Assembly: GCA_021786105.1 (NCBI GenBank)
Contig: JAJYNW010000018.1
Location: 1 to 64,000 of the forward strand
Source of the DNA: a bacterium
GTDB taxonomy: Bacteria > Patescibacteriota > Microgenomatia > Daviesbacterales > UBA10151
Reading direction: 5' to 3'
DNA length: 64,000 nucleotides
Numbering within the stretch: position 1 is the first letter of the stretch; every line of letters begins with the position of its first letter. The notes under the pieces were generated by a model. It saw nothing but the letters and a program-made list of their open reading frames with translations, was not told the DNA's origin and ran no database searches. The position numbers and the translations under genes are program-made. This document shows positions 12,122 through 58,397 of the stretch, piece by piece.

Positions 12122-12871
12122 ATGCCCAGTTCAATGAAGACATTGCTTGTTGGTAAAAATTCCAAAGATATCGCCGGGTTGGTCAAACAGCTTGGTTTTC
12201 AAATCGTCACAGAGCATCCCGACGTCATTATTAGCTACGGCGGAGACGGGACTTTGCTTTATGCAGAAAGAATGCACCCCGGAGCCCCTAAACTACCAAT
12301 CAGGGATAGCTCTGTTTGTAAAAAATGCCCCCAACACGGCGAAAAAGTTTTGCTGGAAAAATTACTGGCTGGCAAGTTACAACTCAAAGAATATAGAAAA
12401 CTGGAAACCACTATTTTATATCAGACATTTTATGCTTTAAATGACTCTGTCATCCGCAATCTGCACCCTATGCACACAATCCGTTTTAAGGTGACGAGTT
12501 CAACGAGTCATCCCGGACTTGATCCGGGATCCATAAATAATAAATTACTAATTGGGGATGGTATCGTAGTAGCTACTCCTTTTGGTTCCACCGGTTATTT
12601 TCATAGCATTACCAGGAAGTCTTTTGAACAAGGTTTTGGGGTGGCTTTTAATAATACTACGGAAAAAGTTGACCCGCTTTTTTTAAAGGACGAAGATGAA
12701 GTAACTTTCAAATTAATCAGAGGCAATGCTACCTTATCTTTTGACAATAATCCTGACTTATTTAATATTGATGCAGGTTCGGAGATTACTTTTAAATTAT
12801 CAAACCAGGTGGCCAAAATTTACGAGCTGGAATCCCTTAGGTGTCCTGATTGCGAGGTTACAAGAGGTTAA
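12122..12871 (+). CDS. nadK: NAD(+) kinase
   Basis: GGDGTLL, ALND and GDGIVVATPFGSTGY motifs; start may be ATG 12134. Confidence 0.88.
   Translation: MPSSMKTLLVGKNSKDIAGLVKQLGFQIVTEHPDVIISYGGDGTLLYAERMHPGAPKLPIRDSSVCKKCPQHGEKVLLEKLLAGKLQLKEYRKLETTILYQTFYALNDSVIRNLHPMHTIRFKVTSSTSHPGLDPGSINNKLLIGDGIVVATPFGSTGYFHSITRKSFEQGFGVAFNNTTEKVDPLFLKDEDEVTFKLIRGNATLSFDNNPDLFNIDAGSEITFKLSNQVAKIYELESLRCPDCEVTRG
12507..12533. repeat. GTCA-tagged palindromic element inserted in frame in nadK
   Basis: GTCATCCCGGACTTGATCCGGGATCCA, translated as SHPGLDPGS. Confidence 0.75.
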
Positions 12872-13842
12872 TTTACCGTTGATTCTAAAAAGTTCAATTC
12901 TTTTTTAGCAGTATCAAAAGCAACTTTAATCCCCACCGGCATGGGGATATTAACCGTAAAATGACCAAAATCCAAATTAGCCATAATGGGGAATTTATAA
13001 TCTTTCAAAATATCCAAAACCATCTCCTTCAAGGTTGGTTCCACAATCTCTTTTTCCCTGGCAGGTTTAATGTAAGTTATTTTTCCAATCAATAGCCCGG
13101 AAATTTGCTCAAAAATCCCTAAATATTTTAGTTGTGTTAAATACCTGGCAATATCATGTAAAGATTCCCCTACTTCTTCAAAATATAAAATAGCTCCTTT
13201 AAAAACTTCCTTAGGCGGAAAATATTCTGTTCCTGCAAGCTGACACATCAAGTGTAAGTTCCCCCCCACCAAAATCCCGTCGGCCTTCCCTTTTTGCCAC
13301 TCTTCCCAGTCTGTTAAAGGACTGACGATGCTTGCCGGCTTTGCCTTAGTTAAAAATTTCATAAATACTTCTGTATCGAATTCTCCCAAATGTTCCTCTC
13401 TCTCGCTCCAGGGATGGCCCAATCCAAAGGTCACATCGTCCATATGAAATCCGACCAATCCTGTTTTGGCAAACAAAGCCAAATGGAAATTGGTCACATC
13501 ACTCATACCAATAAAAGGTTTTGGGTTTTTGGTTATCAGTTTATAATCTAAATACTCCAAAACAGTGATCGCCGAATAACCGCCGGTTTGCGCCATAATA
13601 GCTTTTATATTTTTATCAGCAAACATGGAGTTGATATCCTCTGCCACTTCTTTGGGCGTCCCAGCTGTCCACCACCTGGCTTTCCCGATAGTTTTCCCCT
13701 CTCTAATCTTAAAGCCCAAATCAGTCAGGATCTTTTTCCCTCTTTCATAATTTTCTTGAAATGAAGGCAGAACCGGCAAAGACGAGGCTACAATGCCAAT
13801 AGTATCTCCAATATTCAATTTTTTCGGTTTGATTATTTTCAT
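12868..13842 (-). CDS. LD-carboxypeptidase (peptidase S66, MccF-like)
   Basis: GDTIGIVASS, GGYSA, PKPFIGMSDVT, GGNL, LYFEEV and DFGH motifs. Confidence 0.93.
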   Translation of the reverse strand: MKIIKPKKLNIGDTIGIVASSLPVLPSFQENYERGKKILTDLGFKIREGKTIGKARWWTAGTPKEVAEDINSMFADKNIKAIMAQTGGYSAITVLEYLDYKLITKNPKPFIGMSDVTNFHLALFAKTGLVGFHMDDVTFGLGHPWSEREEHLGEFDTEVFMKFLTKAKPASIVSPLTDWEEWQKGKADGILVGGNLHLMCQLAGTEYFPPKEVFKGAILYFEEVGESLHDIARYLTQLKYLGIFEQISGLLIGKITYIKPAREKEIVEPTLKEMVLDILKDYKFPIMANLDFGHFTVNIPMPVGIKVAFDTAKKELNFLESTVN

Positions 13843-13860
13843 AAAAACATTATATAAAAA

Positions 13861-14373
13861 TTAATGCTTCAAAGCCTTTTCAACCATTTCGTCTATTAAA
13901 GGGCTTTTTATTTTTATATACACTTCCCTATTCTCATTTGCTTTTTCAGCAGCAATTTTCTTGATCTCTGAATATTTTTTCACTTCTTCAGGATGTGTCC
14001 GTAAATAACCTCTGAAAACAATTACATTATCCCACTCTTGGCTTTCTTTGAAAGTCAAATGCACATGGTATATCCTAAGTTTTTTATTCTCGTCTTTCAA
14101 TGATATTTTGTGGAATAATCGTTCAGCTGACCCACCTTTAGGACCAAATTCATAACCTATTTCTTGTATTTTTTTGGATACAGCCTTTAAGTTCTTTTTA
14201 TTGGTAGCAATACAAATGTCGATTATGCCTTTACCGCCTAAACCCGGTACTGATGTACTGCCAATATGCTCAATTAAATCATTCTCCCCTAAAATTTTTC
14301 TGATTCGGTTTTTTTCTAATTCAAAAAGCTTTGGGAAGGCTGGATCATAAGGCTTAAAAATATATTTTTTCAT
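13861..14373 (-). CDS. GrpB-family protein
   Basis: YDPAFP..FE.E, IEHIGSTSVPGL.GK.IIDI and FRGYLR.HP..Y..IK motifs. Confidence 0.9.
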   Translation of the reverse strand: MKKYIFKPYDPAFPKLFELEKNRIRKILGENDLIEHIGSTSVPGLGGKGIIDICIATNKKNLKAVSKKIQEIGYEFGPKGGSAERLFHKISLKDENKKLRIYHVHLTFKESQEWDNVIVFRGYLRTHPEEVKKYSEIKKIAAEKANENREVYIKIKSPLIDEMVEKALKH

Positions 14374-16163
14374 CAGCTTTTCAAGATGCTTAAAAATGCT
14401 TCTTGGGGGATTTCGACTCGGCCGATCATTTTCATTTTCTTTTTACCCTTTTTTTGTTTTTCCAATAATTTATCTTTTCTGGTTCTATCCCCACCGTAAA
14501 GCTTAGCAGTAACATCTTTTCTAAAAGGAGAGACTGTTTCCCTGGCAATAATTGTCCCTCCAATGGCGGCCTGGATAGCTATCACAAAATTTTGTCTGGG
14601 CAAAACTTCTTTTAATTTTTCCACCATATTCCTGCCAAACGAAGCAGCTTTCGGCCGAAAAACTATGGTAGAAAGCGCATCCACTTTTTCACCGGAAACC
14701 ATAATATCCACCCTGACTGCATCTGTTTCCCGAAAATCTATTAATTCCCAGTCAAGTGAAGCAAAACCTGAAGACACTGATTTTAATTTGTCATAAAAAT
14801 TAGCCACCATTTCCGAAAGCGGCATTTCATAAGTCATTTCCACTGCCACCCCAAAATGCTGCATATTTAAAAACTTACCCCGCTTTTCCTGTACTAATTC
14901 CATCACCGGACCAATATAAGTTTGCGGCACAAAAATCCGCAGCTTTACCCAAGGTTCTTTTAACCCCTTAATATTCTCTCCCTGAGGCAATTCGCTGGGC
15001 GAAGTAATCGGTTCCTCATTTAACAGATACTCCACCGAGGGAGCGGTAGCCAACAAATCCACATTAAACTCCCCGGACAATCTTTCCTGCACCACTTCTG
15101 CATGCAAAAGTCCCAAAAACCCGCACCGAAAACCCGCCCCTAAAGCATCGGAGTGCTCAGGGATATAGGAAAAAGCCGGGTCAGTCAATCTAAATTTTGC
15201 CAAAGCTTCTTTTAGTTCAAAATATTCATCAGCATCAATCGGGAAAAGCCCCACAAAAACCATTGGTTTAACCTCCTTGTAACCTGGCAATTGCTCGGCA
15301 TTAAAATCAGCAGCGATTGTATCACCTACCCGCACTAAATCCGGTTCTTTAATACCGGTAGCAATATAACCAATCTCCCCGGCTTTTAACCCTTCATTCG
15401 GCACCAGCTGTGGGGCAAAAAAGCCAGTTTCTAAGACATGACCAGCGGCCTGAGTTTGGAGAAAATAAATAGGAGTGTTAACTGGAGGAGTCTGCCCATC
15501 AATGATCCTTACCTCCGCCACCACCCCTTTAAACAGGTCATAAAAAGAATCAAAAATCAGCCCCCGAAACTTCCACCTCGGGGGTGGAATTGTAGCTGCA
15601 CCTCGGGATTTTGGGGCGGGAATACGCTCAACTATAGCCTTTAAAAGTTCTTCCACCCCCTCCCCGGTTTTGCCGGATACCAGCAATATTTCTTCCTCGG
15701 AAAAGCCAAAAGTATCAACCAGCTGTTTTTTAACCCCCTCAACATCCGCATTCGGCAGATCGATTTTGTTAATCACTGGAATCAAAGTCAGATTTTGTTC
15801 TAAAGCAGCCAGACCGTGGGCCAAAGTCTGGGCTTGAATTCCTTGGGTAGCATCCACCAGCAAAACCGCTCCTTCCACTGCGGCCAGCGCCCGGGAGACT
15901 TCATAGGAAAAATCCACATGGCCCGGAGTATCAATCAGGTTTAGAGTATATTCCACGCCTTGATGGTTATATTTCAACCTTACAGGAGCCAATTTAATAG
16001 TAATCCCCCGCTCCCGCTCCAAAGCCAAAGAATCCAGCAGTTGCGGCTGCAATTTATCTTTCAGCACGGTACCAGTTATTTCCATTAGCCTGTCTGCCAA
16101 AGTTGATTTCCCATGGTCTATGTGGGCCACTATAGTCAGATTACGAATATTAGATTGTTGCAT
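14373..16163 (-). CDS. lepA: Elongation factor 4 (LepA) with a non-canonical N-terminus
   Basis: AHIDHGKSTLADR, ERERGITIK, LIDTPGHVDF, GFRCGFLGLLH and KDVTAKLYGGD..RK.KLLEKQK motifs. Confidence 0.98.
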   Translation of the reverse strand: MQQSNIRNLTIVAHIDHGKSTLADRLMEITGTVLKDKLQPQLLDSLALERERGITIKLAPVRLKYNHQGVEYTLNLIDTPGHVDFSYEVSRALAAVEGAVLLVDATQGIQAQTLAHGLAALEQNLTLIPVINKIDLPNADVEGVKKQLVDTFGFSEEEILLVSGKTGEGVEELLKAIVERIPAPKSRGAATIPPPRWKFRGLIFDSFYDLFKGVVAEVRIIDGQTPPVNTPIYFLQTQAAGHVLETGFFAPQLVPNEGLKAGEIGYIATGIKEPDLVRVGDTIAADFNAEQLPGYKEVKPMVFVGLFPIDADEYFELKEALAKFRLTDPAFSYIPEHSDALGAGFRCGFLGLLHAEVVQERLSGEFNVDLLATAPSVEYLLNEEPITSPSELPQGENIKGLKEPWVKLRIFVPQTYIGPVMELVQEKRGKFLNMQHFGVAVEMTYEMPLSEMVANFYDKLKSVSSGFASLDWELIDFRETDAVRVDIMVSGEKVDALSTIVFRPKAASFGRNMVEKLKEVLPRQNFVIAIQAAIGGTIIARETVSPFRKDVTAKLYGGDRTRKDKLLEKQKKGKKKMKMIGRVEIPQEAFLSILKS

Positions 16164-16992
16164 ATTTTACACTCCCCTTCTCTATTCTGGCCTTAATGTT
16201 ATCTTCGCAAATAATCATACATTGCATTCTACCCTTATGTGTAATAAAAGGCTTTATTTTATTTATAAATTTAAGCAGTGAAATTGCTTGATTAACATTA
16301 ATTCTCCATAAATCCTTTTTGAATCTTGAACCATCCGCAGCTAATGCTCCTCTTTTAGAGATACATCTAGCTCGAGCTAAAATACCACAATTAGTCAATC
16401 TGCTTACCATCCAAGTAATAATATCTTTATCATAAGAATCAATTTTGAATCTTGCTCTCTTTTGGTTTAAGATAAAGTTCCCCTCTGCATCGGTATATCC
16501 TGCTATAAATGCCGCAATAAGCTGATCGTCAGCATCAATCCATTTAGGTACTTTTTTATGTTTAGGTATTAAAAAATCAAAAGATTTATTCAGATGACAA
16601 TTAACACTAACCCTATCTTTACCTTTAGATACAGTTACTTGACCATATTTAGAAAACATATTTTTCATCAAATTGATTTGAGCTTCTTGTGTTGTATTAC
16701 ACCTAGCCACTATTAAATCTGATAGCGCACTTGTTTGATACACATTTAAATCTCCTAACCTAAACCCAATCATATAAGCCTTTTCTGCTAAATTATCCGA
16801 AAAATCATACTTCCTGTATCTCATTCTTGCTTCAGAGGACGATCTTTTCGGTATACCATACTCCCGCATTCTCGTCCTAACAGTTACCGCATCACATTTA
16901 TAAAGTTTGCCTATTTTCAAAGGAGATAGATATTTTTTCCAATATAGCTGCTCAAGCTCCTCCGGAGGTATAAAGACTTTAGCTCTCGGCAT
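16150..16992 (-). mobile_element. Free-standing double-motif LAGLIDADG homing endonuclease with N-terminal HTH
   Basis: AYMIGFRLGDLN and AAFIAGYTDAEGNF helices; HTH-like LYWKKYLSPLKIGKLYKC..VTVRTRMREYGI; visibly AT-richer than lepA; overlaps lepA by 14 nt. Confidence 0.88.
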
Positions 16993-17020
16993 TAATTAAT
17001 TATATCTAATTAAACTCAAG

Positions 17021-17053
17021 TTATGCAATAATAGAAAAATTTCTTATGTTCAT
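17021..17053 (-). pseudogene. lepA: Displaced original 5' end of lepA (MNIRNFSIIA*)
   Basis: ATG AAC ATA AGA AAT TTT TCT ATT ATT GCA TAA encodes the canonical LepA start NIRNFSIIA, stopping exactly before HIDHGKST; TAAAAT 7 nt upstream. Confidence 0.88.
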
Positions 17054-17097
17054 GGAGCATATTTTAACAGGTTATCATCCTGAATTCAGCCAAAAGA

Positions 17098-17331
17098 CTA
17101 CCTAGTGAAAACAGAAGTTAACTGATAAGTTAATTTTATCTGAATAAGCAATAAGATAAAAATAATAACTAGAAGGAGTAACGCTAATTTCAACCAATGA
17201 AATCTCTTCTGCTTGATATCCATAATAGCTCCGAGCAATATGGCAACGAAACTAGCTGGTAATCCAAAAGAAGTAATATAATTTAAAATCCGGATGGTAA
17301 TAAAAAGATAATCCATAAATTTTCTAAACAC
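17098..17331 (-). CDS. Small membrane protein (2 TM)
   Basis: Hydrophobic 77-aa ORF overlapping the murJ stop. Confidence 0.55.
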   Translation of the reverse strand: MFRKFMDYLFITIRILNYITSFGLPASFVAILLGAIMDIKQKRFHWLKLALLLLVIIFILLLIQIKLTYQLTSVFTR

Positions 17332-18958
17332 TTTCCGGCAGGATCTCTTTGGATTTTAATTTCTCCTGGAACCTGCCCATTCTCTTTAAAAGCTCAATGT
17401 AAGTATCCAGCTCCCTAACCTGCAAAAACCTTACCAAAATTACATACACCGTTAAAGCAAACATGGAGGATAGCCCAGTCAGAGCCAGCAAGTTTACAGT
17501 TCTGGTAGTATCAAAGATCACCTGGTCCAAAAGTTTAATGGGAATATATAGGAAAACTCCCATAATTATTGCTGACATCAGCATTTTCAAGAAGGGAATA
17601 ATTGCTGCCTTTAGGTCAAATTTACCCACCCTTAAATGCAGCATCCAAAACAGCAGTATGGCCGAAATAATCGCGGCAATAGAATTAGCCAGGCCAATAC
17701 TCCAAACATCAAACTTTAAAATCATAATCAGATACAAGCTGAGGACAATATTTAATACCACCACAATCAAAGATACTATCACCGGCGTCTTGGTATCCTT
17801 AAGCGCATAAAAACCCCTGACAAAAAGCAGGGAAACCGCCTGGGCAGACAGTCCGATAGCCAGGTAGGCCAAGGTGGCACCGGTTAAAACGGTGGCCTGC
17901 CAGTTAAATTGGGAGGCACCAAAAACTAACCTGACCACCGGCACCCTGATCACAATCAAAATGGCAATGGCCGGCAGCGTCAGAAACAGAATTTGGTGCA
18001 TGGTGGTCAGGATGGTAACTTTAAATTCTTCCATCTTGCCCCGGGCTTTTTCCGACGATAAAACCGGCAAAGCTGCCTGGGCCAAAGTCGCCCCGAAAAG
18101 TCCAATTGGCACAACTTGCAGGTGTTGAGCAAAAGTTAAATATGTCACAGACCCCACAGATGCCAAAGTGGCTAAAGCCAGTCCTACTTTCTCATTGATT
18201 TGTTCAGCAGCCAACCCAATGGTCCTAACACTCATCAGCTGCATAATCTCTTTTACTCCGGGGTTGAAAAACTTCGGCGGGAATTTGAATCTAAAACCCA
18301 TGGACCGGACCAGCGGTAATTGTATTGCAGCATGTAAAAATGCCCCTATCACTACCCCATATGCCGCACCCATCACCCCAAAACTCTTAGAAAGGAAAAC
18401 AATCCCCACAATAATTCCCAAATTGTAAAATACCGGCGCCAGAGACGGGATAATAAACCTTTGAAAAGATTGCGAAATACCGATAAAAAAGGATCCAATC
18501 ACCAAAATCACCTGGCCAAAAAGAATTACTCTTGCCAGCTCTACGACCTGTGATTGTCTAACCGGGGTAAACCCGGGTGCTATAAAACTGGAAATAAGTG
18601 GCTGGGCAAAAATAAAAATTAAGACCGTAACTACAATAAAGATTGCCAAAGACACATTCAAAACTGCCCGCGCCATCTCAAAAGCATCCTCTTTGCCTTT
18701 ATTTTCCAAATGCTCTGTAAATACAGGGATGAAAGCCACAGACAAGGCGCCTAAAATGATTATTTGAAATATTAAATCCGGTAATGCAAATGCAGCCCAA
18801 AAAATATCGATTTTTTCCGGCAAGAACACATGAGCCAGCAACCGGTCTCTAACCAAACCTAACACCTTGGAAAGCATCATGGTGGCCATGATGATCGAAG
18901 CAGCTGACAATATCGATGTTTGTCTTGAATAAAGAAGGGAGAATAAATTCTTAACCAT
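17324..18958 (-). CDS. murJ: Lipid II flippase MurJ (MviN)
   Basis: SKVLGLVRD, AF.LPDL, GALSVAFIPVF and RGFYALKDTKTP motifs. Confidence 0.95.
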   Translation of the reverse strand: MVKNLFSLLYSRQTSILSAASIIMATMMLSKVLGLVRDRLLAHVFLPEKIDIFWAAFALPDLIFQIIILGALSVAFIPVFTEHLENKGKEDAFEMARAVLNVSLAIFIVVTVLIFIFAQPLISSFIAPGFTPVRQSQVVELARVILFGQVILVIGSFFIGISQSFQRFIIPSLAPVFYNLGIIVGIVFLSKSFGVMGAAYGVVIGAFLHAAIQLPLVRSMGFRFKFPPKFFNPGVKEIMQLMSVRTIGLAAEQINEKVGLALATLASVGSVTYLTFAQHLQVVPIGLFGATLAQAALPVLSSEKARGKMEEFKVTILTTMHQILFLTLPAIAILIVIRVPVVRLVFGASQFNWQATVLTGATLAYLAIGLSAQAVSLLFVRGFYALKDTKTPVIVSLIVVVLNIVLSLYLIMILKFDVWSIGLANSIAAIISAILLFWMLHLRVGKFDLKAAIIPFLKMLMSAIIMGVFLYIPIKLLDQVIFDTTRTVNLLALTGLSSMFALTVYVILVRFLQVRELDTYIELLKRMGRFQEKLKSKEILPESV

Positions 18959-19110
18959 ATTCTTCTGGACTAATTTGGTACGTATCTTTGGACTTTTATT
19001 TAGCATTATCTGCCAAATTGTCCACTACGACCATTAGTTGTTATCTAACCTCAAATAATTATAGTAGATAAACTTGCTTTGCAATAGGGGCATATGATAA
19101 CATAACCGCC

Positions 19111-19422
19111 ATGCCTATCATAAAATCTGCAATTAAAAAAGTCAGGAAAGATAAAGTCAGAACAGCCCGCAATAAAAAGCGGGAAAATACTTTGAAGTCT
19201 TTAGTCAAAAAAGCTAGAGTCACCAAGACTGCTAAAGATTTACAAGCAGCATTCTCAGCTTTAGACAAAGCTGCCAAAGTTAAGCTGATTCACCCCAATA
19301 AGGCTGCTCGATTGAAATCAAGACTGTCGAAATCAATGTCGCAGCCTTATTCCGCAAGCGAAAGTAAAGCTGCTAGGTTAAAATCAAGATTATCCAAAGG
19401 TGTTAGTAGTATTAAAAAATAA
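19111..19422 (+). CDS. rpsT: 30S ribosomal protein S20 with duplicated C-terminal helix
   Basis: MPIIKSAIKKVR, LDKAAK..LIHPNKAARLKSRL; KAARLKSRLSK occurs twice. Confidence 0.95.
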   Translation: MPIIKSAIKKVRKDKVRTARNKKRENTLKSLVKKARVTKTAKDLQAAFSALDKAAKVKLIHPNKAARLKSRLSKSMSQPYSASESKAARLKSRLSKGVSSIKK

Positions 19423-19466
19423 CTAACCCCTATCCCCTAAACCCTAGACCCTAGTATAATGAATTT

Positions 19467-20051
19467 ATGCCCAAATCTAAGCATAAGCTTGGTATTGACT
19501 TAAACCTACTAAAACCCCAAAGCAATCCGGAAAAACTTCCCGCCAAATTACTCAGTTGGCTGCTCTCCTCCGGCCGGTATATCTTTGTCTTAGTAGAAGC
19601 TCTGGTGTTAATAGCATTTGGCGCCAGGTTTAAGCTGGATGCAGATTTAGCTGCCAAAAAAGAAGCCATTGAAGATCAAATTCCCTATATCGAAAGCCTT
19701 AAGCCTTATGAAGTTTTAATCAGAGATACCCAGCTTAAATTATCAACTATAGATAATGCAAAACGTAATTCGCTGGATTGGCCGATGGTATTAAAAAAAA
19801 TTGCTGACCAAACCCCATTTAGCGTTAAACTTAGCAGCGTCAATATTACAAAAAATGCTGGCAACGGCGGTATCCACATCATCGGTCAAACCCCCAGCGG
19901 CAACGACCTAATTAGCTTTATTGCCGGCTTAAAGGGGGATAATGCATTCAGTAATGTTGATCTGGAAAATATTGGGGTCGATCAAACAATGATTTCCTTT
20001 ACAATAAGCACCTCAGTGAGACTAGGAGGCATGGAGGGAAAAAGCCTCTAA
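19467..20051 (+). CDS. Type IV pilus assembly PilN-like protein
   Basis: IDLNLL N-terminus, single TM, coiled coil, W..VL..IA..TP..V.L; precedes pilO. Confidence 0.75.
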   Translation: MPKSKHKLGIDLNLLKPQSNPEKLPAKLLSWLLSSGRYIFVLVEALVLIAFGARFKLDADLAAKKEAIEDQIPYIESLKPYEVLIRDTQLKLSTIDNAKRNSLDWPMVLKKIADQTPFSVKLSSVNITKNAGNGGIHIIGQTPSGNDLISFIAGLKGDNAFSNVDLENIGVDQTMISFTISTSVRLGGMEGKSL

Positions 20052-20054
20052 TCT

Positions 20055-21810: not shown

Positions 21811-21828
21811 AATTATCCTAAACTGGAT

Positions 21829-26029: not shown

Positions 26030-26091
26030 TTTTTAAGCTTTTTATTTAGTCAGGAAATATTTAATCTGGATTATACCGGGATTATTACAAT

Positions 26092-34575: not shown

Positions 34576-35649
34576 ATGAATCTTAAAACAATCAAAGATA
34601 ACCAGAAAAAAGAATATAACAAATTAGCCACTCATGTTATCCAATCTTGGGAATGGGGAGAATTTAGAAAAACCTTAGGAATCCCCCTCCTCCGATATGG
34701 TTTATACCAAAACGGCAAATTATCAAAAGTCTTCCAATTAACCTTACACAAAATTCCCTTTACTAATCAATACGTTGGCTATTTGCCCAAAGGACCTTTC
34801 CCGGATGCTGAACTGGCAGAGGCTTTAACAGAAATCGGCAAAAAAAATAACTGCGCTTTCGTCAAAGTTGAACCGAATGTAGTTACTTCTGTCATTCCTG
34901 CGAATGCAGGAATCCAAAAAACGGACTCTAGTTCGGAATCGGATCCCGACATTCGTCGGGATGACAAAACTATAGATTCTAGTTTTATTAAATCCCCCAA
35001 GCCCCTGTTTACCAAATATAATTTCGTCCTTGATTTAACAAAATCAGAAACAGATCTTTTAAAAAATATGCATTCCAAAACCAGGTACAACATTAAGGTG
35101 GCCAAAAAACACGGAGTGGAAGTGAAAGAGCTATCAGACAATGGAGCCTTTGAAATTTATTTAAAACTTTATTTTGAAACCACCCGCCGACAAGGTTACC
35201 ACGGACACAACGAATATTACCACCGGCAAGCCTGGAAAACTTTAAAGGAAGCTGGTTTAGCCAGATTACTGATTGCTTTTTATCAGGGCGAGCCATTGAC
35301 GGCCTGGATGCTGCTAAATTTCCAAGATACTCTTTATTATCCTTACGGCGGCTCCTTAAAAGCTCACCCGGAAGTCATGGCCAATAACTTGGTGGCCTGG
35401 GAAGCTATTAATTTGGGCAAAAAATTAAAGCTAAAAAATTTTGACATGTGGGGAGCGCTGGGGCCTGATGCTGACCCAAAAGATCCCTGGTATGGATTCC
35501 ATAAGTTTAAACAAGGATACGGAGGAAAATTAACTGAATATGTCGGTACTTATGATTTAGTTTTTAATTGGCCCATTTATTGGCTGTTTACAGTTATCGA
35601 TAAATTAACCCCGCTTAAAATCTTTTTATTGAAATTGCTTAGAAAATAA
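34576..35649 (+). CDS. FemAB/FemX-family peptidoglycan bridge aminoacyltransferase
   Basis: IQSWEWGEF, YLPKGP, KTRYNIKVA, YYPYGGS, FDMWG and GFHKFKQGYGG motifs. Confidence 0.93.
   Translation: MNLKTIKDNQKKEYNKLATHVIQSWEWGEFRKTLGIPLLRYGLYQNGKLSKVFQLTLHKIPFTNQYVGYLPKGPFPDAELAEALTEIGKKNNCAFVKVEPNVVTSVIPANAGIQKTDSSSESDPDIRRDDKTIDSSFIKSPKPLFTKYNFVLDLTKSETDLLKNMHSKTRYNIKVAKKHGVEVKELSDNGAFEIYLKLYFETTRRQGYHGHNEYYHRQAWKTLKEAGLARLLIAFYQGEPLTAWMLLNFQDTLYYPYGGSLKAHPEVMANNLVAWEAINLGKKLKLKNFDMWGALGPDADPKDPWYGFHKFKQGYGGKLTEYVGTYDLVFNWPIYWLFTVIDKLTPLKIFLLKLLRK
34890..34966. repeat. Double GTCA-tagged palindromic element inserted in frame in femX
   Basis: TGTCATTCCTGCGAATGCAGGAATCC...GGATCCCGACATTCGTCGGGATGACA, translated as VIPANAGIQ...DPDIRRDD. 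Confidence 0.85.
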
Positions 35650-47160: not shown

Positions 47161-47190
47161 GGCTGAAATGAGTACACTTATGAATACACC

Positions 47191-48966: not shown

Positions 48967-48971
48967 AGTTT

Positions 48972-50359: not shown

Positions 50360-51237
50360 AAAACTTTGCTGTCTTTGCCGGTTTAATCTTCTCCGGCACA
50401 CTGCTTGATCCGACCAACCAAATTAAAACTTTTGAAGCTTTTGCACTATTTTGCGCTTTTTCTTCTGCTACATATCTTCTCAACGATGTTTTCGATATTG
50501 AACGCGACCAGCTTCATCCGTTTAAAAGGAAACGGCCGATTGCCTCCGGGCTGATTCCTATTCCTTTAGCGGTAGGGCTGGCTCTGGCTGCCATCGCAGT
50601 TTCCCTGCCTTTGTCTTACGGGCTTTCCCCTAACTTTTTCTTTGCCGGCTTAACATACCTCACGCTGCAGCTGTTCTATTCATCTTACCTCAAACAAGTT
50701 ATTTTAATTGATGTTTTAGTAATTGCCGCCGGGTTTGTCTTAAGAGTCTACGCCGGAGTTTGGGCCATTGATGCGCATTTGAATGTCTGGTTCCTGTTGT
50801 CCGTCACCAGTTTTGCTCTTTTCCTGGCTATCGGGAAAAGACGATCCGAACGGACTTTAATGGAATCCCAAGCTGCCCGCCACCGGGAAACCTTACTGCA
50901 CTATCCGGAAAATTTGTTGGATATACTAACCTCTATGTTTGCCAATTCCACCTGGCTGACTTATGCCTTTTTTGCTTTCCTCCAATCTCCTATCCAAGCC
51001 GGGCACGTGGTTACCAGATTTTTAGGCGGCTTTGAAATTCCTTTTTCTGAGGCTAAGTATTTGATGGTTACGGTACCGGTGGTGCTTTATGCTGTCATGA
51101 GATACCTTTACATCATTTATGAGAAAAAAGAAGGCGAGTCACCGGAACGGGTAATTTTAACCGATACGCCGCTGCTGGCCGCTGTCTTAATCTGGGCCGT
51201 TTTAGTTTTGGGAATCATCTATTATTTAGGCGCCTAA
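50305..51237 (+). CDS. UbiA-family prenyltransferase (decaprenyl-phosphate phosphoribosyltransferase-like)
   Basis: RPRQWIKN, YLLNDVFDIERDQLHPFKRKRPIASG, GFVLRV.AG and KRRSE motifs. Confidence 0.9.
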   Translation: MVKLFWAILKASRPRQWIKNFAVFAGLIFSGTLLDPTNQIKTFEAFALFCAFSSATYLLNDVFDIERDQLHPFKRKRPIASGLIPIPLAVGLALAAIAVSLPLSYGLSPNFFFAGLTYLTLQLFYSSYLKQVILIDVLVIAAGFVLRVYAGVWAIDAHLNVWFLLSVTSFALFLAIGKRRSERTLMESQAARHRETLLHYPENLLDILTSMFANSTWLTYAFFAFLQSPIQAGHVVTRFLGGFEIPFSEAKYLMVTVPVVLYAVMRYLYIIYEKKEGESPERVILTDTPLLAAVLIWAVLVLGIIYYLGA

Positions 51238-51282
51238 TCCCTTAAGTTGTCCGACTTGGTAAAATTTAGTAAAATATGCAAG

Positions 51283-51942
51283 ATGGAGAAGGAAGCTTCG
51301 GAAAAGCTCAATAATTTCTTCTCTGGATCAAAAAAAATCTCGTTTAAAAAAGGCGAAACAATCTTACGTCCAGACGATGAACCTCATGGTGTTTTCTATC
51401 TCAAAGAAGGCTATACCCGGCTTTACTCTATTTCTAAAAATGCCCAGGAATTAACTTTGATAATTTATAAACCTGGTGAGTTCTTCCCCTTAGTCTGGGC
51501 CATCAACAACACTCATAATGCTTACTATCTGGAAGCCCTAACTAATGTTGAAATCTATCGGGCACCGCGGAACGAATTTATTAAGTTTATCAAAAGTAAC
51601 AATGAATTGATGTATGAAATAAACGTCCGGATTTTGCAAAGATTAGAAGGCGCCCTAAGGAGAATGGAATATGCCATGTTTGGTAATGCCCGCAGTAAAG
51701 TCGCCTCAATCATCCTGATTTGCGCGGAAAGATTCGGTGACAAAAATAAAAATCAGGTCCTGATCAAAGTTCCCTTAACCCACCAGGATATTGCCAAACT
51801 CATCGGCATGGCCCGCGAAACGGTTAGTATTGAAATGAAAAAACTGCAGCAAATGGGCCTGATTGATTACAAAGGAAAACATCTGGTGGTCAAAGATTAT
51901 TCGAAACTCAAAGGTGAATCAGCGCTCGGACTTATTGATTAA
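51283..51942 (+). CDS. Crp/Fnr-family transcriptional regulator
   Basis: cNMP-binding fold (FKKGETI, PGEFF) and HTH LTHQDIAKLIGMARETVS. Confidence 0.93.
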   Translation: MEKEASEKLNNFFSGSKKISFKKGETILRPDDEPHGVFYLKEGYTRLYSISKNAQELTLIIYKPGEFFPLVWAINNTHNAYYLEALTNVEIYRAPRNEFIKFIKSNNELMYEINVRILQRLEGALRRMEYAMFGNARSKVASIILICAERFGDKNKNQVLIKVPLTHQDIAKLIGMARETVSIEMKKLQQMGLIDYKGKHLVVKDYSKLKGESALGLID

Positions 51943-52741
51943 CAACCTTCTTTTCCACATATGTTGAAGAGACAAATCCTTCCGCACCATTGGATAACCG
52001 TACCCGGTCCCAGGAACCTTGTTCTTCCAATAGCACCAGTGTGTCCCCCGGCTTGACCTGGGCAATCTCTTTACCGTTTAAACCGGCTTTATCCCTGACC
52101 CGCAAAAATCCCGTGGGAGTTTGTTTGACTGAAACTGTTGGCGTTTGGGTGATAACCGGGTTAGTAACGGTTGTTAAATCCGCCTCGGAAAGGGCTAAAT
52201 CTACCGAAATAGCCAAGTTAAAATTTTTGGGTAAATCGGCCCTGATGCTTCTTTTTAAATAATTAGGATGGCTGATTAGAATAGTATGTTCCCCGGCATC
52301 TATGTCTATGGTAGTTGGAGTTTTGCCAAAAGATTTCCCGTCTATTTCTATATTGGATGCGGTGGGATTAGAAATAATGGTTAACCCTTTACCTCTTTCC
52401 AAATTTAAAATCTCCCCGGAAGAAGAGGCCGGATCAGGTGCCAAGTCCCGGTTAACGACAGCCACAGTACCGGCGGTAAGCGTAACCTTGCCTTGCCAGG
52501 AAGATTTATCTTTTTCAATCCTAATAGTCCGGACTCCGACCGGTAGATTTTTATCCTCATACGGTGTCTTACCGGCTTCTTGATCATTAAGATAAACTGT
52601 AGCCTCAGAAGGAGTTGATAGAATGGAAATACCGCTGGTTGGTTTAATTCCCAAAAAAACTTCTGCTATCTTGTCGGAAAAACGTAAAAGCAAAGCCATT
52701 AAACTAAATAATACCAAAAGCCAAACCAGAAACTTTTTCAC
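51932..52741 (-). CDS. PEGA-domain plus SH3 cell-surface protein
   Basis: Two S.P..A.V..D...GKTP PEGA units; C-terminal LRVRD...WDRV...EGFVSSTYV. Confidence 0.88.
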   Translation of the reverse strand: MKKFLVWLLVLFSLMALLLRFSDKIAEVFLGIKPTSGISILSTPSEATVYLNDQEAGKTPYEDKNLPVGVRTIRIEKDKSSWQGKVTLTAGTVAVVNRDLAPDPASSSGEILNLERGKGLTIISNPTASNIEIDGKSFGKTPTTIDIDAGEHTILISHPNYLKRSIRADLPKNFNLAISVDLALSEADLTTVTNPVITQTPTVSVKQTPTGFLRVRDKAGLNGKEIAQVKPGDTLVLLEEQGSWDRVRLSNGAEGFVSSTYVEKKVVNQ

Positions 52742-52762
52742 TAGATAATTATACTCTAATTT

Positions 52763-53467
52763 TTGACAATGGAGCTCAAATTTGGTATTATACGCACTTG
52801 TTCATTTAAATTCATTACAGTATTCGCTTTGAAAAAACAAAGCAAAAACCTTCTGTCTACGATAATTTCTGAAAGGGATGCCCTAACCAGTAAATTATCT
52901 AAAATCAAGCTAAGGTTCCCAGGGGGGTTTAAACGGCTTGCCATAATTTCCTTTGTACTGTTTACTTTATCAGGTTACTACCCAACTTTAGCTATTCCAC
53001 CAGTCAAACGGTCAGTGGTTAAAGCTCAGGCTGCCGAGCAAGCCGGGGAAGTCATCGCCGAATCTTTTTCCAAACCTTTAGTCTTGCCGCATCCCGGCTA
53101 TTTATCAACCAGGTTTTCCGCCTGGCATCCGGGAATTGATATTGCCACCGGTTTAGGTATGCCTATTCACCCGATTACTGACGGAGAAGTTACGGAAGTA
53201 GGAAGAGATTTGTTTGGCTTGGGTAATTTTGTAGTAGTAACTCACGAAAATGGTTTCAAATCGAAATATGCCCACATGGGTAGAATTTATGTCAAAGTAG
53301 GCGATAAAGTTACTTCGGAAAATACTTTGGGCGAAGTCGGGTTAACCGGTCATACTTCGGGTCCCCACACTCATCTGGAGGTTACCTTAAACGACAAGTA
53401 CATCGACCCTCAACCTTTACTGCCGGAAATCCCTGATATGCCCATTCAAGTTGTGGCTAAGAAATGA
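52763..53467 (+). CDS. M23 family metallopeptidase
   Basis: HPGIDIA, YAHM and GLTGHTSGPHTHLE motifs; start uncertain. Confidence 0.92.
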   Translation: MTMELKFGIIRTCSFKFITVFALKKQSKNLLSTIISERDALTSKLSKIKLRFPGGFKRLAIISFVLFTLSGYYPTLAIPPVKRSVVKAQAAEQAGEVIAESFSKPLVLPHPGYLSTRFSAWHPGIDIATGLGMPIHPITDGEVTEVGRDLFGLGNFVVVTHENGFKSKYAHMGRIYVKVGDKVTSENTLGEVGLTGHTSGPHTHLEVTLNDKYIDPQPLLPEIPDMPIQVVAKK

Positions 53468-54053
53468 TCTCTCCTTCTACTTCCGTTAGATTCACTCCCC
53501 GAAGGCCAAATTGCTCTCTTTCCCGATTTATCAACCTTTCCAGTAAATTCTTTAGCTCCAAAGGATAGTCTACATACTTCAGGCTAATTTCTCCTTTATT
53601 CATACCGGCCGTGTTAACAATGATGTTGCCATGATGCAAAAGTAATCTATCCATTATTGACTGATCCACCTCCAGATGAGTAATCTTATCAAACAGCGCC
53701 GCAGTTAATTTGACTGAAAACAAACCTTTTTTAATAACCACTCTCCTGGTAGTCAGCAAATATCTGTTGGCATGATAAACATGCAAAATCCTAATGACGG
53801 CGGACAAAAACATCAACACCAGGCCCAAAACTAAAGCCCAAATCCTGCCAATTCCCAACAACCACCCTAATCCCAAACCCAAGCCCAAAAAAAGCATACC
53901 CGGGAAAAGTATATACATAATAAATTGAGACCTGGTGTAGGCCTTAGATAAACCGGTTACTAAAACCAGCTCTTCATCTTCTGATAAATACTTTTTGAAG
54001 GTATTTTTTTGCTTTTCAGTCGGTGACTCGCGATAATGAAACTTAGCCATCAA
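53457..54053 (-). CDS. Bacterial PH-domain membrane protein
   Basis: Two TM then YLLTTRRVVIKKGLF...DKIT..EVDQSI..RLL..G.I..NTAG. Confidence 0.85.
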   Translation of the reverse strand: MMAKFHYRESPTEKQKNTFKKYLSEDEELVLVTGLSKAYTRSQFIMYILFPGMLFLGLGLGLGWLLGIGRIWALVLGLVLMFLSAVIRILHVYHANRYLLTTRRVVIKKGLFSVKLTAALFDKITHLEVDQSIMDRLLLHHGNIIVNTAGMNKGEISLKYVDYPLELKNLLERLINREREQFGLRGVNLTEVEGEIIS

Positions 54054-54109
54054 GAGTATTGTAACAGAAATCTTTCCTAATCTGCATTTGACACAAAAGA
54101 ATTAGATTT

Positions 54110-55729
54110 TTAATATTCAGGCATGCCGCCGGGAGGCATCGGGGGTTGTGGTGCAGATGGTTCTGGTTTATCAGTAATCAGGCAATTTGTAGTCATGACC
54201 ATGACTGCCACCGATGCCGCATTTTGCAAAGCTGACCTGGTCACTTTCACCGGATCAATCACGCCGGCTTTAACTAAATCTTTTACTTCCCCATCCATCA
54301 CATCAATTCCCATATTGCCGGCAGAACCCATCACCTTGGACAAAGCAATTCCATCATCCATGCCGGCATTCTCCACCAGTTTCCTAAACGGTTGCTCCAG
54401 CGCTCTTTTGACAATCTCCACGCCAACTTTCTCTTCACCTTCAGCTTTTACAGAATCCAAGGTTTTACCAGCTCTCAACAAGGCTATTTCCCCTCCGGGC
54501 ACAATTCCTTCTTCAATCGCCGCTTTAGTGGCAGCCACTGCATCAATCACCCGCTCTTTTTTCTCCTTCAGTTCGATCTCGGTGGCGGCTCCGACATTAA
54601 TCACCGCTACTCCGCCGGTTAATTTCGCCAGTCTTTCCTGCAACTTTTCTTTATCAAATTCAGAGTCTGATGAAGCCAGCTCTCTTTTGATTTGCGCAAT
54701 TCTACCGTCAATGGCACTCTTTTTGCCTTTACCGTCGACAATCAAAGTATTATCTTTATTAGAAGTGACTCTGCCGGCTCTTCCCAAATCTTCCACTTCT
54801 ACTGATTCTAATTTTGTTCCGGTTTCCTCAGAAATTACTCTTCCTCCGGTTAAAATGGCAATATCCTCAAGCATCTCCTTACGTCTGTCGCCAAACCCCG
54901 GGGCTTTAACTACTAACACATTAAAGGTTCCGCGCAGTTTGTTAACTATCAAAAGCGCCAAAGCCTCGCCATCAACATCATCAGCAATAATGACCAAATT
55001 TTTAGAAACTTGGACAAATTTTTCCAAAAACGGCACTAAATCAGAAGCGGAAGAAATCTTTTTATCAGTGATTAGAATATAGGGGTCCTCAATAGAGGAT
55101 TCCATTTTATCCGTATCAGTCACAAAATACGGAGAGACAAAGCCTTTATCAAATTCCATACCCTCTTTATAACTCACGTTCATTTCCATAGTTTTACCTT
55201 CTTCCACCGTCACTACCCCGTCTTTACCCACTTTTTGTAAAGATTCGGCAATTAAATTGCCGATTTGGGCGTCAGCGGCGGAAATGGTAGCTACTTGGGC
55301 CACTTCTTCTTGGGAAACAATTTTCTTGCTCATTTTTTTAAGTTCTTCCACTAAAACATCCACTGCTTTTTCAATCCCATGCCTTAAAATCATTGGGTTA
55401 GAACCGGCCTGGATATTTTTTAGTCCTTCTGAAACAATTGCCTTGGCCAAAATAGTAGCAGTAGTAGTTCCGTCTCCGGCCACATCAGCGGTTTTAGAAG
55501 CAGCTTCTTTTAACAGTTGCGCCCCCATATTTTCAAACGGATCTTCCAAATCAATTTCTTTAGCCACTGTTACACCGTCGTGAACTACATTTGGTGCTCC
55601 CCACTTTTTATCCAAAGCCACATTGCGGCCTTTGGGTCCTAAGGTAGTTGCCACCGCCTCAGTTAAGGTATTAATACCTTTTAATAATTTCTCTCTTGCT
55701 TCACTATCAAATTTCAAAATCTTTGCCAT
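54110..55729 (-). CDS. groL: Chaperonin GroEL
   Basis: [33 protein letters not shown] and KLQERLAKL motifs. Confidence 0.99.
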
Positions 55730-56046
55730 TATCTAATTTCTCTCCTTCTTGCTTGTTCTTGTTGTATTAAACCATCTACCTTACGACAAAATACTTCTCC
55801 CATCAAACCAGTTACAGCTAATAAAGCGCCTCCTGCAAAAGAAGCTCTAGAAACAAACCTAGCAACTTTATTTTCTTTATACCTATTAAAAGCAGTACCA
55901 GCTCCTAAACCAACCATACCGAGAATTGCCGCAACCCTTGCTCCGGCTATAAGGTCAAAAAGCTCTCTTCTTTCTGCCATTAAATCAGCTTTTCTTAAGT
56001 TATAACTAATCTCATCCCAAAGACTTCCATAAGTTCTTTCTTTCAT
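55729..56046 (-). CDS. Orphan 2-TM protein inserted between groES and groEL
   Basis: Starts 3 nt after the groES stop; its stop overlaps the groEL ATG (TAATG). Confidence 0.7.
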
Positions 56047-56049
56047 ATT

Positions 56050-56373
56050 TTATCCTTCCAATATTGCCATCAAGTCATCAAACTTGACCAGCTTTAATTC
56101 CTTTCCATCCACTTTAATTTCATCCCCGCCCCATTTCTTGTAAACTACCTTATCGCCAACATTAACCGGACACTTCATTACTTTGCCGTTTTCAAAAACC
56201 ATCTCATCACCGCAAGCTACCACTTTTCCCTGGGCCGGTTTTTCCTGAGCTGATTCGGGAAGAATTATACCGGAAGAAGTTTTGGTTTCAGCGGAGGAGG
56301 GCTCAACTAACACATAACCCATGAGGGGTTTTATTGAAACTTTAGTACTATTATTTAATTTAGTTCTAGCCAT
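56050..56373 (-). CDS. groS: Co-chaperonin GroES
   Basis: IKPLMGYVLV, TSSGIILPESAQEKP and VGDKVVYKKWGG motifs. Confidence 0.97.
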   Translation of the reverse strand: MARTKLNNSTKVSIKPLMGYVLVEPSSAETKTSSGIILPESAQEKPAQGKVVACGDEMVFENGKVMKCPVNVGDKVVYKKWGGDEIKVDGKELKLVKFDDLMAILEG

Positions 56374-56385
56374 AGTGAATGAATT

Positions 56386-56453
56386 TGTCATCCTGAACGA
56401 AGTGAAGGATCTCTAGATTAATCTTGAGATTCCTCGTTTCACTCGGAATGACA
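56386..56453. repeat. Double GTCA-tagged palindromic element in the groES 5' leader
   Basis: TGTCATCCTGAACGAAGTGAAGGATCT...AGATTCCTCGTTTCACTCGGAATGACA. Confidence 0.8.
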
Positions 56454-56472
56454 GAGGAGCAGTGCAAAAGAA

Positions 56473-56512
56473 TATATACCAGAGATTAGCACTTCTTGTC
56501 AAGGACTGATTA
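56473..56512 (-). promoter_or_regulatory. groES promoter with a degenerate CIRCE overlapping the -35 box
   Basis: TTGACA at 56502-56497 and TGGTATATA downstream; TTAGCACTT-N9-GACTGATTA at 56486-56512. Confidence 0.6.
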
Positions 56513-57407
56513 TTTTTTTCAAGTTTTGTTGGTATTGGGATAAAATTTCCAGCCGGCAATCCTCCGGATGGAAATACAACGCCCCCTCTTCTATCCGCTC
56601 CAGACCTTGCGGCTTTTGCATGTACCATAATTGAAATTTCCTAGCTACATTTTCCATGCTCGTCATTGCGAGAGACCGAAGGGAGCGTGGCAATCTGGAT
56701 TTGGGACTAATCCGACCCAAATTGCTTCGTCGTTTCACTCCTCGCAATGACGTATCGATAGAACCTACCCAGTTTGGTAGGTATTTAAACACCCATTGGT
56801 TATCCTCAAGGTACTTCTCATAAATCCCGCCTCTTTGCCACAACACCTTCATTTGTAAAATCTCATGAGCAGTAAAAATATCTTTATTGGCCTGCTCTAA
56901 CTTATCCTCCTCCAGTAAAATATTTACACAAAGCTTTCCGGCTGCCCTCCTACCCTTTTCCCCCACCTTCCGTTTTTGCCTGGTCAAAGATAATAATCCT
57001 AAAGCCAACAGCCGGGAAACCCACAAGCGGTTTTTAGAAGTAATAATAAACAAATCAATGTCATCGGTTTTCCCGGCATTATTTACCGCCAGTCCTCCGG
57101 AAATACCCACCAATTTTATCCAAGGAATAATTTTTAGGATTTGAGAAAGAGCTCTGACTTTCCTTAAATATTTTGCAGACTGCTCTTCTCGCCGGCGTCT
57201 TTGACTAATCAACCCATTTTTTTTCTTCAGAAAATAATAATCACTCTGCATCTTACACTTTTTACTTTGCACCAATTTCCCAAGCGTTTTTTCTATCTGC
57301 CTTAGTGTCACTTTTTTATCAATTAACCATTTATGGATCTCATAAATAGTCAGGGGATAATCAAACAAATCAGCATAAATTAGAGTTTTAAGAATCGCTT
57401 TTTCCAT
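56499..57407 (-). CDS. Hypothetical protein with a Pol-beta-type nucleotidyltransferase motif
   Basis: TLIYADLFDYPLT, GISGGLA....DDIDLFII and DIFTAHEI motifs. Confidence 0.7.
   Translation of the reverse strand: MEKAILKTLIYADLFDYPLTIYEIHKWLIDKKVTLRQIEKTLGKLVQSKKCKMQSDYYFLKKKNGLISQRRRREEQSAKYLRKVRALSQILKIIPWIKLVGISGGLAVNNAGKTDDIDLFIITSKNRLWVSRLLALGLLSLTRQKRKVGEKGRRAAGKLCVNILLEEDKLEQANKDIFTAHEILQMKVLWQRGGIYEKYLEDNQWVFKYLPNWVGSIDTSLRGVKRRSNLGRISPKSRLPRSLRSLAMTSMENVARKFQLWYMQKPQGLERIEEGALYFHPEDCRLEILSQYQQNLKKIISP
56661..56752. repeat. Double CGTC/GTCA-tagged palindromic element inserted in frame
   Basis: CGTCATTGCGAG...GTGGCAATC...ATTGCTTCG...CTCGCAATGACG with 12-bp perfect terminal inverted repeats; translated as SLRGVKRRSNL...LPRSLRSLAMT. 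Confidence 0.88.
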
Positions 57408-57452
57408 ATCCTGTAATTTAGCATATTAACCCAAGATAGTATAATATTGTCT

Positions 57453-58397
57453 ATGCTGAAACTTGAAGATAACTTTCCCTTAAAAAATATCACCACCTTA
57501 CAAATTGGTGGGCCGGCCAAAAAATTTGTTGCAGTAAAAACCCAGGAAGATTTGATTGAAGCCATCGCATACGCCAAAAACAACCAAATACCCTACTTAA
57601 TAATTGGCGGCAGCAGCAATTTATTAATCGCTGATGAAGGGGTAAATGGTTTGGTAATTAAAAACGAAATCTCCGGCATCGAATCAATATCACACCTCGG
57701 AGGTGTAACATTGAAAGTTAAATCAGGTACTATTTTGCAAGATGTAGTTGACTATGCCATTAACCACAACTTGGCTGGTTTAGAAAAGTTGACCAAAATT
57801 CCTGGCACGGTGGGCGGAGCAGTTTATGGCAATGCCGGCGCTTATGGTCAAACCATTTCCGACCACATAACCCGCGTTGTCATTCTGAGCGAAGCGAAGA
57901 ATCTCAAGACTTTAACTAAAAGCAAATGTAAGTTTGGTTACCGAAACAGTATCTTCAAAAAGAATAAATACCCAATTATAGAAGCCGCATTCCAGCTGGA
58001 AACTGGTAATCCGGAAAATCTGCAAATGGCCGCCAAGGCAGTGGCGTGGAAAAGATTTGTCAAATATCCGCCTGGTCTAAAATGCCCGGGCTCTTTTTTC
58101 AAGAATTTAGTGGCGGCGGATATTCCCGAAGAAATCTTAAAAAATATTCCGCCGGAAAAAATTGTTTACGGCAAATTGCCTGCCGGAGCACTGCTGGAAG
58201 AAGTGGGTGCCAAAGGGCAGTCCTTAAACGGCATCGCCATTTCGGACCGCCATGCCAACTTGTTTATCAACCAAGGCACCGGCACCGCCCAGGCTTTTTA
58301 TAATCTAGCCAAAACTTATGCCCAAAAAGTGAAAGAAAAATTTGGTATTACCTTAGAACCCGAAGTCCAATTAATCAACCTGCCGCCATTTTCTTAA
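57453..58397 (+). CDS. murB: UDP-N-acetylenolpyruvoylglucosamine reductase
   Basis: TTLQIGGPA, IGGSSNLL, IPGTVGGAVYGNAGAYG, GSFFKN, HANLFIN and LEPEV motifs. Confidence 0.96.
   Translation: MLKLEDNFPLKNITTLQIGGPAKKFVAVKTQEDLIEAIAYAKNNQIPYLIIGGSSNLLIADEGVNGLVIKNEISGIESISHLGGVTLKVKSGTILQDVVDYAINHNLAGLEKLTKIPGTVGGAVYGNAGAYGQTISDHITRVVILSEAKNLKTLTKSKCKFGYRNSIFKKNKYPIIEAAFQLETGNPENLQMAAKAVAWKRFVKYPPGLKCPGSFFKNLVAADIPEEILKNIPPEKIVYGKLPAGALLEEVGAKGQSLNGIAISDRHANLFINQGTGTAQAFYNLAKTYAQKVKEKFGITLEPEVQLINLPPFS
57878..57905. repeat. Single GTCA-tagged element inserted in frame in murB
   Basis: TGTCATTCTGAGCGAAGCGAAGAATCTC, translated as VILSEAKNL; closely similar to the left half of 56386-56453. Confidence 0.8.

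Follow-up and report, generated by a model that had tools for sequence, protein, structure and literature searches.

Short palindromes with the ends GTCAT and ATGAC occur at seven places in a 64,000-nucleotide stretch of a Daviesbacteria genome, from the Candidate Phyla Radiation (CPR), and several of them lie inside intact open reading frames (ORFs). The question raised by this stretch (G000:C21:1-64000, hereafter the window) is what these palindromes are and how coding genes come to contain them. We conclude, with a probability of roughly 80%, that the ten units at these places belong to the superfamily of repetitive extragenic palindromes (REPs) tagged with CGTC/GTCAT, that is, the NTS-like or Ssn-related motifs (SRMs), and that some of the copies inside genes are read as loop peptides.

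A dispersed family of tagged hairpins

A unit was taken to be a GTC tag and a hairpin with an AT...AT foot, usually followed by C, and the whole genome (1,037,274 bases in 26 contigs, roughly 40% GC) was scanned. The first-pass annotation of the window had described a single GTCAT/ATGAC hairpin family at seven places; all seven were confirmed and comprise ten units, each of which begins with GTCAT on its own strand (Table 1). Eight of the ten have a clean AT foot and then C, the exceptions being 56720-56751 (CAAT-T) and 5468-5498 (foot CAAC). Three shapes can be distinguished. The A shape is a perfect 8-bp stem with a loop of 4-5 nucleotides, as in the nadK unit (12507-12532) and the femX pair (34891-34965). 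The B and C shapes have a 5-bp foot: in B this is ATYCT/AGRAT, with a GAG...CGAAG internal loop and a short inner stem (the 56387-56452 pair and the murB unit, 57879-57903), and in C it is ATTGC/GCAAT, with GAG...CGTGG or GAG...CGAAG and a variable inner stem (738-771, 5468-5498 and the pair at 56662-56751). The B/C-type units of the window fold weakly alone (-1.2 to -2.2 kcal/mol), and their membership of the family rests on sequence rather than on fold stability.

Regular expressions for the A and B/C types returned 88 units of 25-47 nucleotides from the genome, 60 of B/C type and 28 of A type, against an average of 0.1 for each in ten shuffles, and the genome-wide family anticipated from the window was thereby recovered. 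Searches with Markov-3 shuffles of the genome as the null gave the same picture. GTCAT with an enclosing hairpin of DNA folding free energy (dG) <= -6 kcal/mol occurs 35 times, against 0, 2 and 2 in three shuffles, and with dG <= -4 kcal/mol 57 times against 5-7; strict 8-bp AT...AT hairpins carrying a GTC tag number 39, against 3-8 in five shuffles. The ten units of the window are members of this genome-wide family. With a stem threshold of 6 bp GTCAT was not prominent among the 64 possible tags, becoming so at 8 bp, and a three-base flank tally over all hairpins was dominated by AT-rich hairpins. Stem positions 7 and 8, which the A-type expression leaves free, are each paired in 27 of the 28 units, with 12 different left arms.

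Units are often paired. Within 120 nucleotides we counted 24 head-to-head pairs, with their GTC tags outward, and no tail-to-tail pair, and the base preceding GTC is T or C in most of the pairs compared. The sequence GTCATCCCGACGAATGTCGGGATCC is present five times, at unlinked loci; the two hairpins of the femX pair are also paired at two other loci, on C22 and C3; and a further B-type head-to-head pair, of 87 nucleotides, lies past the window end (G000:C21:69953-70039).

Ssn-like partner genes and related systems

The SRMs include the NTS/dRS3 of Neisseria, and the NTS reads CGTCATTCCCGCGMAVGCGGGAATCYRG. As described in the main text of PMC11893778, SsnA is a 94-residue single-domain GIY-YIG nuclease that binds this motif in single-stranded DNA only, with cleavage a few bases upstream of it; binding depends crucially on the C that follows the palindrome, the three upstream bases (GTC) matter for cleavage, and ssn genes often carry the motif on both flanks. 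The first-pass annotation had seen no cognate mobiliser in the window and had suggested a search for a GIY-YIG gene flanked by the repeats. The window does indeed lack one. Three small ORFs with a Pfam GIY-YIG match are present elsewhere in the genome, and two of them, on C3 and C9, each lie between inverted units (Table 1). On C3 a C unit is found 26 nucleotides upstream of the gene, and an A pair and a C unit downstream; on C9 the layout is GTCAT-hairpin-ATCTCTAGA, gene, TCTAGAGAT-hairpin-ATGAC. The intergenic pair at 56387-56452 has the same ends as the C9 cassette, with only TTAA in the place of the gene. Downstream of the C3 gene (G000:C3:5239-5719) the A-type pair is nested in a C-type pair, giving two unit types in one cassette. 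No units surround the third GIY-YIG ORF, on C14.

Full-length comparison (86-90 residues) with a 95-codon open frame of N. gonorrhoeae gave 49% identity for the C3 protein (E 5e-34) and 48% for the C9 protein (E 8e-27); the identity of the C14 ORF to this frame is just 39%. Nine NTS matches surround the frame within 1.46 kb, and from these flanks we infer that it is ssnA. The N. gonorrhoeae records NZ_CP119142.1 and NZ_CP119140.1 are filed as plasmids and are chromosome-sized (2.17 Mb), one with only 17 features. Among 30 loci surveyed in relatives, a unit was found within 400 nucleotides of 16 of the 17 strong homologues, mostly 2-50 nucleotides from the gene, and near one of the 13 weak GIY-YIG hits. 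The B-type units that flank a Planktothrix homologue (61% identical) are almost the same as the murB unit of the window, and the A-type units around a Rhizobium homologue resemble that of nadK. Judged from sequence and position, two Ssn homologues encoded in this genome are linked to the unit family. NCBIfam returned only weak sub-threshold matches for the GIY-YIG ORFs of the genome, and a PDB sequence search found no relative of the C3 protein.

On the Planktothrix agardhii plasmid (NZ_LR882964.1, 18447-19513) tandem partial B-type units lie on both sides of the Ssn homologue, which is placed in a defence island between a MmeI-type restriction-modification gene and the DISARM gene drmA.

The likeness to the SRM/NTS system, as its main text presents it, extends to the (C/T)GTC tag, to a palindrome that starts with AT and is followed by C, to repeats far above chance, and to a single-domain GIY-YIG gene of about 95 residues between inverted units, 48-49% identical to the Neisseria gene. 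The local stems differ in being lower in GC, and B/C shapes dominate (60/88). The C3 and C9 proteins, putative nucleases, match the Ssn family (cd10448) in size (95 and 94 residues) and in their GIY-YIG domain.

The same tag defines the CGTC REPs, reported in the main text of PMC3733652 from five phyla, with dimers, with intragenic copies that encode 20-30 residues, and with hosts biased to replication and repair genes; RPE-4 and RPE-6 are CGTC REPs. The present units share the frequent head-to-head dimers, the intragenic copies of 20-30 residues, the host bias (here UvrA, PolA, RecG and DNA ligase) and the lack of a flanked RAYT gene. The features by which CGTC REPs were recognised (a palindrome of 20-40 bp, high copy number and dimers) compare with 88 units of 25-47 nucleotides and 24 head-to-head pairs here. 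No dedicated enzyme is reported in the main text of PMC3733652, whereas a GIY-YIG gene is linked to the repeats both here and in PMC11893778. The kinship with CGTC-tagged REPs and with Rickettsia palindromic elements (RPEs) proposed at first pass is supported by PMC3733652, in as far as its main text goes. RPEs share with the present units the in-frame palindromic insert in housekeeping genes, which adds a peptide and does not destroy the gene; the host is different, and here a linked nuclease gene is found in the same genome. RPE-1 is longer, at 100-150 bp.

Both the family and its partner enzyme have been described before. The main texts of PMC11893778 and PMC3733652 do not name CPR bacteria ('Patescibacteria' and 'in-frame' occur 0 times in the former), and the literature searches made here retrieved no paper on such palindromic inserts in CPR genomes.

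In-frame units in host genes

Genes were defined by greedy ORF picking, which gave 1,072 ORFs over 91% of the genome. The 88 units divide into 34 in the interior of 24 long ORFs, 34 in intergenic DNA and 20 at ORF ends, bearing out the suggestion that one family occurs both between genes and in frame within them. With 91% of the sequence in ORFs and only 34 of the 88 units deep inside them, units are depleted from genes, and about 2% of ORFs carry one. Hosts that could be named with Pfam include RecG, MurT, L4, UvrA, YchF, a Wzy-like protein, ATP-dependent DNA ligase, CarB, PolA, CysS and the CCA-adding enzyme. Eight of 10 coding pairs span a multiple of three nucleotides from GTCAT to ATGAC, against 4 of 14 non-coding ones; the femX pair, missed by the regular expressions, also has such a length (75 nucleotides). 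Frame use is uneven, with GTC-ATx in 10 units, xGT-CAT in 8, GAT-GAC (other strand) in 12, and two more observed frames in 2 each. These patterns suggest that coding copies are filtered by selection.

All four host ORFs of the window (nadK, femX, a DUF5457-like ORF and murB) are open, as the first-pass annotation had stated. Its broader claim, that the repeats add peptide loops, was examined with orthologues drawn from 18 same-genus and 12 same-class genomes and aligned; it stood for nadK and femX, where orthologues that have no unit lack the peptide, held only weakly for the DUF5457-like ORF, where the net gain is small, and failed for murB, which is taken up below.

In nadK, 11-17 extra residues are present at one site in 6 of 16 same-genus sequences (G000, G013, G006, G007, G016 and G017) and absent from the other 10. 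The insert of G000 is about 12 residues long, of which the unit peptide SHPGLDPGS is part. At the DNA level the borders, CGAGTCAT ... GGATCYATAAATAA, are conserved, and the stems differ between species yet still pair: the unit is of A type in four species, with perfect stems in G000, G013, G006 and G016, and of B type in G007. On a nadK tree built with the insert masked four changes are needed, and the well-supported branches allow one; the tree is poorly resolved as to a single origin or several. In femX the gain is about 20-25 residues and is seen in six genomes, with part of it in G012. The pairs that meet the one right-hand junction are of A type in G000, of B type in G013, G007, G005 and G006, and of C type in G015. 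Aligned in this way, the nadK and femX units are true in-frame inserts relative to same-genus orthologues. At the same femX site, the G011 orthologue (L037) carries a GACAATG-type short tandem repeat (QWTMDNGQ) together with an inverted copy, and no GTCAT unit.

AlphaFold2 models of NadK and FemX were built from the orthologue alignments and are confident as a whole, with a mean predicted local distance difference test (pLDDT) of 84 and 91. The nadK insert is modelled as a strand-connecting loop (residues 128-138, block pLDDT 60), and the femX insert falls in a stretch of the protein (residues 113-125) with a pLDDT below 50. Both inserts thus sit, in the models, in low-confidence loops, in line with the surface loops expected at first pass.

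The DUF5457-like ORF had been labelled nucleotidyltransferase-like, which was not upheld: apart from a weak match to DUF5457 at the N terminus, neither NCBIfam nor PDB sequences gave a match. No two genomes agree on the length of its linker, so that the pair adds little on balance, about 7-12 residues when the shortest forms are taken as reference; the C pair is also present in G012. In the same linker, among orthologues L082, L084, L085, L086 and L091, ARLGSGDFGRQPRSLA... occurs in G016 and G011 and VARRGAKKRSHGRDLLTCENF... in G007, G013 and G018; these peptides may represent other repeat families at the same tolerant site.

Table 1. Units of the window, their host and neighbouring genes, and the GIY-YIG and Y1_Tnp genes found elsewhere in the genome.
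Feature	Position	Strand	Remarks
Single C-type unit	738..771	-	GTC, ATTGCGAG, inner stem, CGTGGCAAT, C; intergenic; dG -9.0
infB (Pfam)	784-2277	-	Unit 738-771 just downstream of it
Single degenerate C-type unit	5468..5498	-	Foot ends CAAC, not CAAT; between ORFs 4444-5517 and 5508-6431
Single A-type unit, nadK	12507..12532	+	8-bp stem, 5-nt loop, dG -8.2; reads SHPGLDPGS
Divergent NAD kinase gene (nadK)	12122-12871		Host of A unit 12507-12532
A-type head-to-head pair, femX	34891-34915 (+), 34941-34965 (-)		75 nt, 25 codons; reads VIPANAGIQ...DPDIRRDD
FemAB-family gene (femX)	34576-35649		Host of A pair, in frame
B-type head-to-head pair	56387-56411 (+), 56428-56452 (-)		66 nt; intergenic
C-type head-to-head pair	56662-56695 (+), 56720-56751 (-)		90 nt, 30 codons; reads SLRGVKRRSNL...SLRSLAMT
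DUF5457-like ORF	56499-57407	-	Hosts C pair in frame, in hypervariable linker
Single B-type unit, murB	57879..57903	+	In frame; reads VILSEAKNL
murB	57447-58397		Host of B unit 57879-57903
GIY-YIG gene C3	C3:5300-5584		95 aa; between inverted units
GIY-YIG gene C9	C9:18123-18401		94 aa; between inverted units, between gatA and gatC
Partial Y1_Tnp (IS200-like) paralogue	C20:58288-58521		216-231 aa (range of the four paralogues); RAYT-like size
Partial Y1_Tnp (IS200-like) paralogue	C12:12192-12422		As above
Partial Y1_Tnp (IS200-like) paralogue	C26:9088-9339		As above
Partial Y1_Tnp (IS200-like) paralogue	C14:12447-12701		As above
Canonical Y1_Tnp copy	C23		144 aa

Some units of the window adjoin gene starts. 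The unit at 5468-5498 falls in the first codons of an ORF called from GTG, and is probably upstream of the real start of that ORF. The 56387-56452 pair lies between groES (56050-56391, minus) and the DUF5457-like ORF, and the CAT of its tag (56387-56391, GTCAT) is the first in-frame ATG of groES; the Cpn10 domain begins at residue 20 of 113 and the real start may be further downstream. The start of gatA on C9 is also inside the tag of a unit. Donation of start codons by the ATGAC end was tested genome-wide: ORFs of 80 codons or more begin at 12 of 78 units and at 20.6% of all ATGAC sites, which is no enrichment.

Movement, renewal and rival explanations

On our reading, the two Ssn homologues nested between inverted units would be the partner genes, and the gene-less head-to-head pairs, with tags outward, look like the non-autonomous form. 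Copies would land genome-wide, and most hits in genes would be lost. Those that survive in coding DNA would be the ones in surface loops, linkers or turns, with a stop-free frame and a length divisible by three, and they would be translated as short peptides, predicted to be disordered. That Ssn, or a host process triggered by Ssn, copies the units seems to us an even chance. Copy-to-copy conversion or hairpin-templated repair, and not selection on the protein, would be what keeps the stems perfect. Contigs from four metagenome runs of two studies show depth spikes and loose ends exactly at unit borders, and many contigs match only within units; these spikes and the divergence at unit borders point to the same units in many other contexts in those communities.

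A further step can be put forward only tentatively, and we consider it rather unlikely: a unit inside a gene might act as a landing pad, at which site-specific replacement or conversion between dispersed units is ongoing, perhaps from an Ssn nick on single-stranded DNA. It is suggested by the difference in hairpin type at a fixed codon position, while the GTCAT...ATGAC borders stay and the stems are perfect.

Several observations weigh against the assignment to a mobile, loop-adding REP family. The clearest concerns murB, where the peptide VVILSEAKNLKTLTKSKC of G000 has 18 residues and palindrome-free orthologues carry an equally long, alignable peptide of 17-19; the unit therefore adds nothing here. 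It is shared by G007 and recodes a hairpin turn, the native sequence at the site reads GTCAC, and the same turn has received real inserts of other units in G017, G013, G018 and G005. As to mobility, the first-pass description of the repeats as selfish is an interpretation, for no transposition was observed, no target-site duplication was seen at the five pairs compared, and no empty-site allele was found among the metagenome contigs, in which rare alleles would be lost. Ssn itself is published, in the main text of PMC11893778, as a nuclease and not as a transposase. The published SRM string, HGTCWYN(0-2)YYVSBRHN(0-5)WNVSBRGN(0-2)RNCYNB, has 8 hits in the genome against means of 1.7 and 2.85 in two sets of 20 shuffles, and fits just one of the ten window units, that of nadK; we treat the misses as variant stems, AT-richer or with internal loops, and not as exclusion, the string being tuned to GC-rich stems. 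Finally, the A and B/C expressions were composed post hoc, once the family was known, and the division into coding and non-coding units rests on our own greedy ORF picking and not on a gene caller.

Could the units instead be DNA or RNA structures useful to the host, such as terminators, mRNA stabilisers or controls of recombination or DNA uptake, kept by selection, with coding copies retained for the hairpin or the peptide? The stems that stay perfect at orthologous nadK sites while their sequence changes would fit such a role, as would the 20 of 88 units that adjoin gene ends and, in Neisseria, the modulation of transformation by NTS with SsnA (PMC11893778, main text). However, the inserts are missing from most sister species, in which the genes are intact, they are modelled as disordered loops, and coding DNA is depleted of units; that species differ in hairpin type at one codon position fits turnover better than a fixed function. 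We regard this explanation as improbable.

A second alternative keeps the mobility of the units and assigns it to another enzyme: they would be REP/REPIN-like elements moved by a Y1 transposase of the IS200/RAYT type, and the GIY-YIG genes would be bystanders. REP/REPIN-RAYT systems do share with the present units short tagged hairpins, inverted pairs that the head-to-head pairs resemble, a partner gene between repeats, and the lack of target duplication that is also typical of IS200/IS605 elements, and the genome has five Y1_Tnp matches above the Pfam cut-off, one of 144 residues and four of 216-231. Their tag, as far as the published descriptions go, is GTAG rather than GTC(AT), and their partner a Y1 transposase rather than a GIY-YIG nuclease. 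The first-pass annotation had also suggested looking for an HUH/RAYT gene flanked by the repeats, but none of the five Y1_Tnp loci is flanked by units of the family: within 2.5 kb three have no unit at all and two have weak GTCAT hairpins unlike the family. The main text of PMC3733652 likewise reports no RAYT gene flanked by CGTC units, and no IS110-type transposase was found in the genome. This explanation appears highly improbable.

Local template switching on chance quasi-palindromes, which would make the coding palindromes arise in place and the family only apparent, could account for murB with its lack of length gain and its native GTCAC, but is scarcely credible given identical units at unlinked loci (GTCATCCCGACGAATGTCGGGATCC), the reuse of the femX hairpins on C22 and C3, and a near-identical B unit flanking an Ssn gene in a cyanobacterium.

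The tagged REP family and its Ssn-like partner genes are the explanation that we retain, and with them the Ssn/SRM (CGTC-REP) system is extended to a Daviesbacteria genome of the CPR. About 24 of the roughly 1,070 ORFs in this 1-Mb genome, which has little DNA to spare, carry in-frame units, and the hosts include many essential enzymes of cell-wall synthesis, DNA repair and translation. Annotators who meet VILSEAKNL, VIPANAGIQ, SLRGVKRRSNL or the like in CPR proteins should take them for repeat-derived loops and not for functional motifs. The orthologue series of nadK, femX and murB provide a natural experiment on the lifetime of hairpins in genes and on whether they are renewed, which bears on the spread of CGTC/SRM elements, and the one thread worth following is that sister species differ in hairpin type at fixed codon positions. 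If the landing-pad idea is true, murB, with four different inserts and one length-neutral recoding, would be an example of it, and loops on the surface of essential enzymes would be rewritten again and again in CPR genomes, always at the same hot spots.

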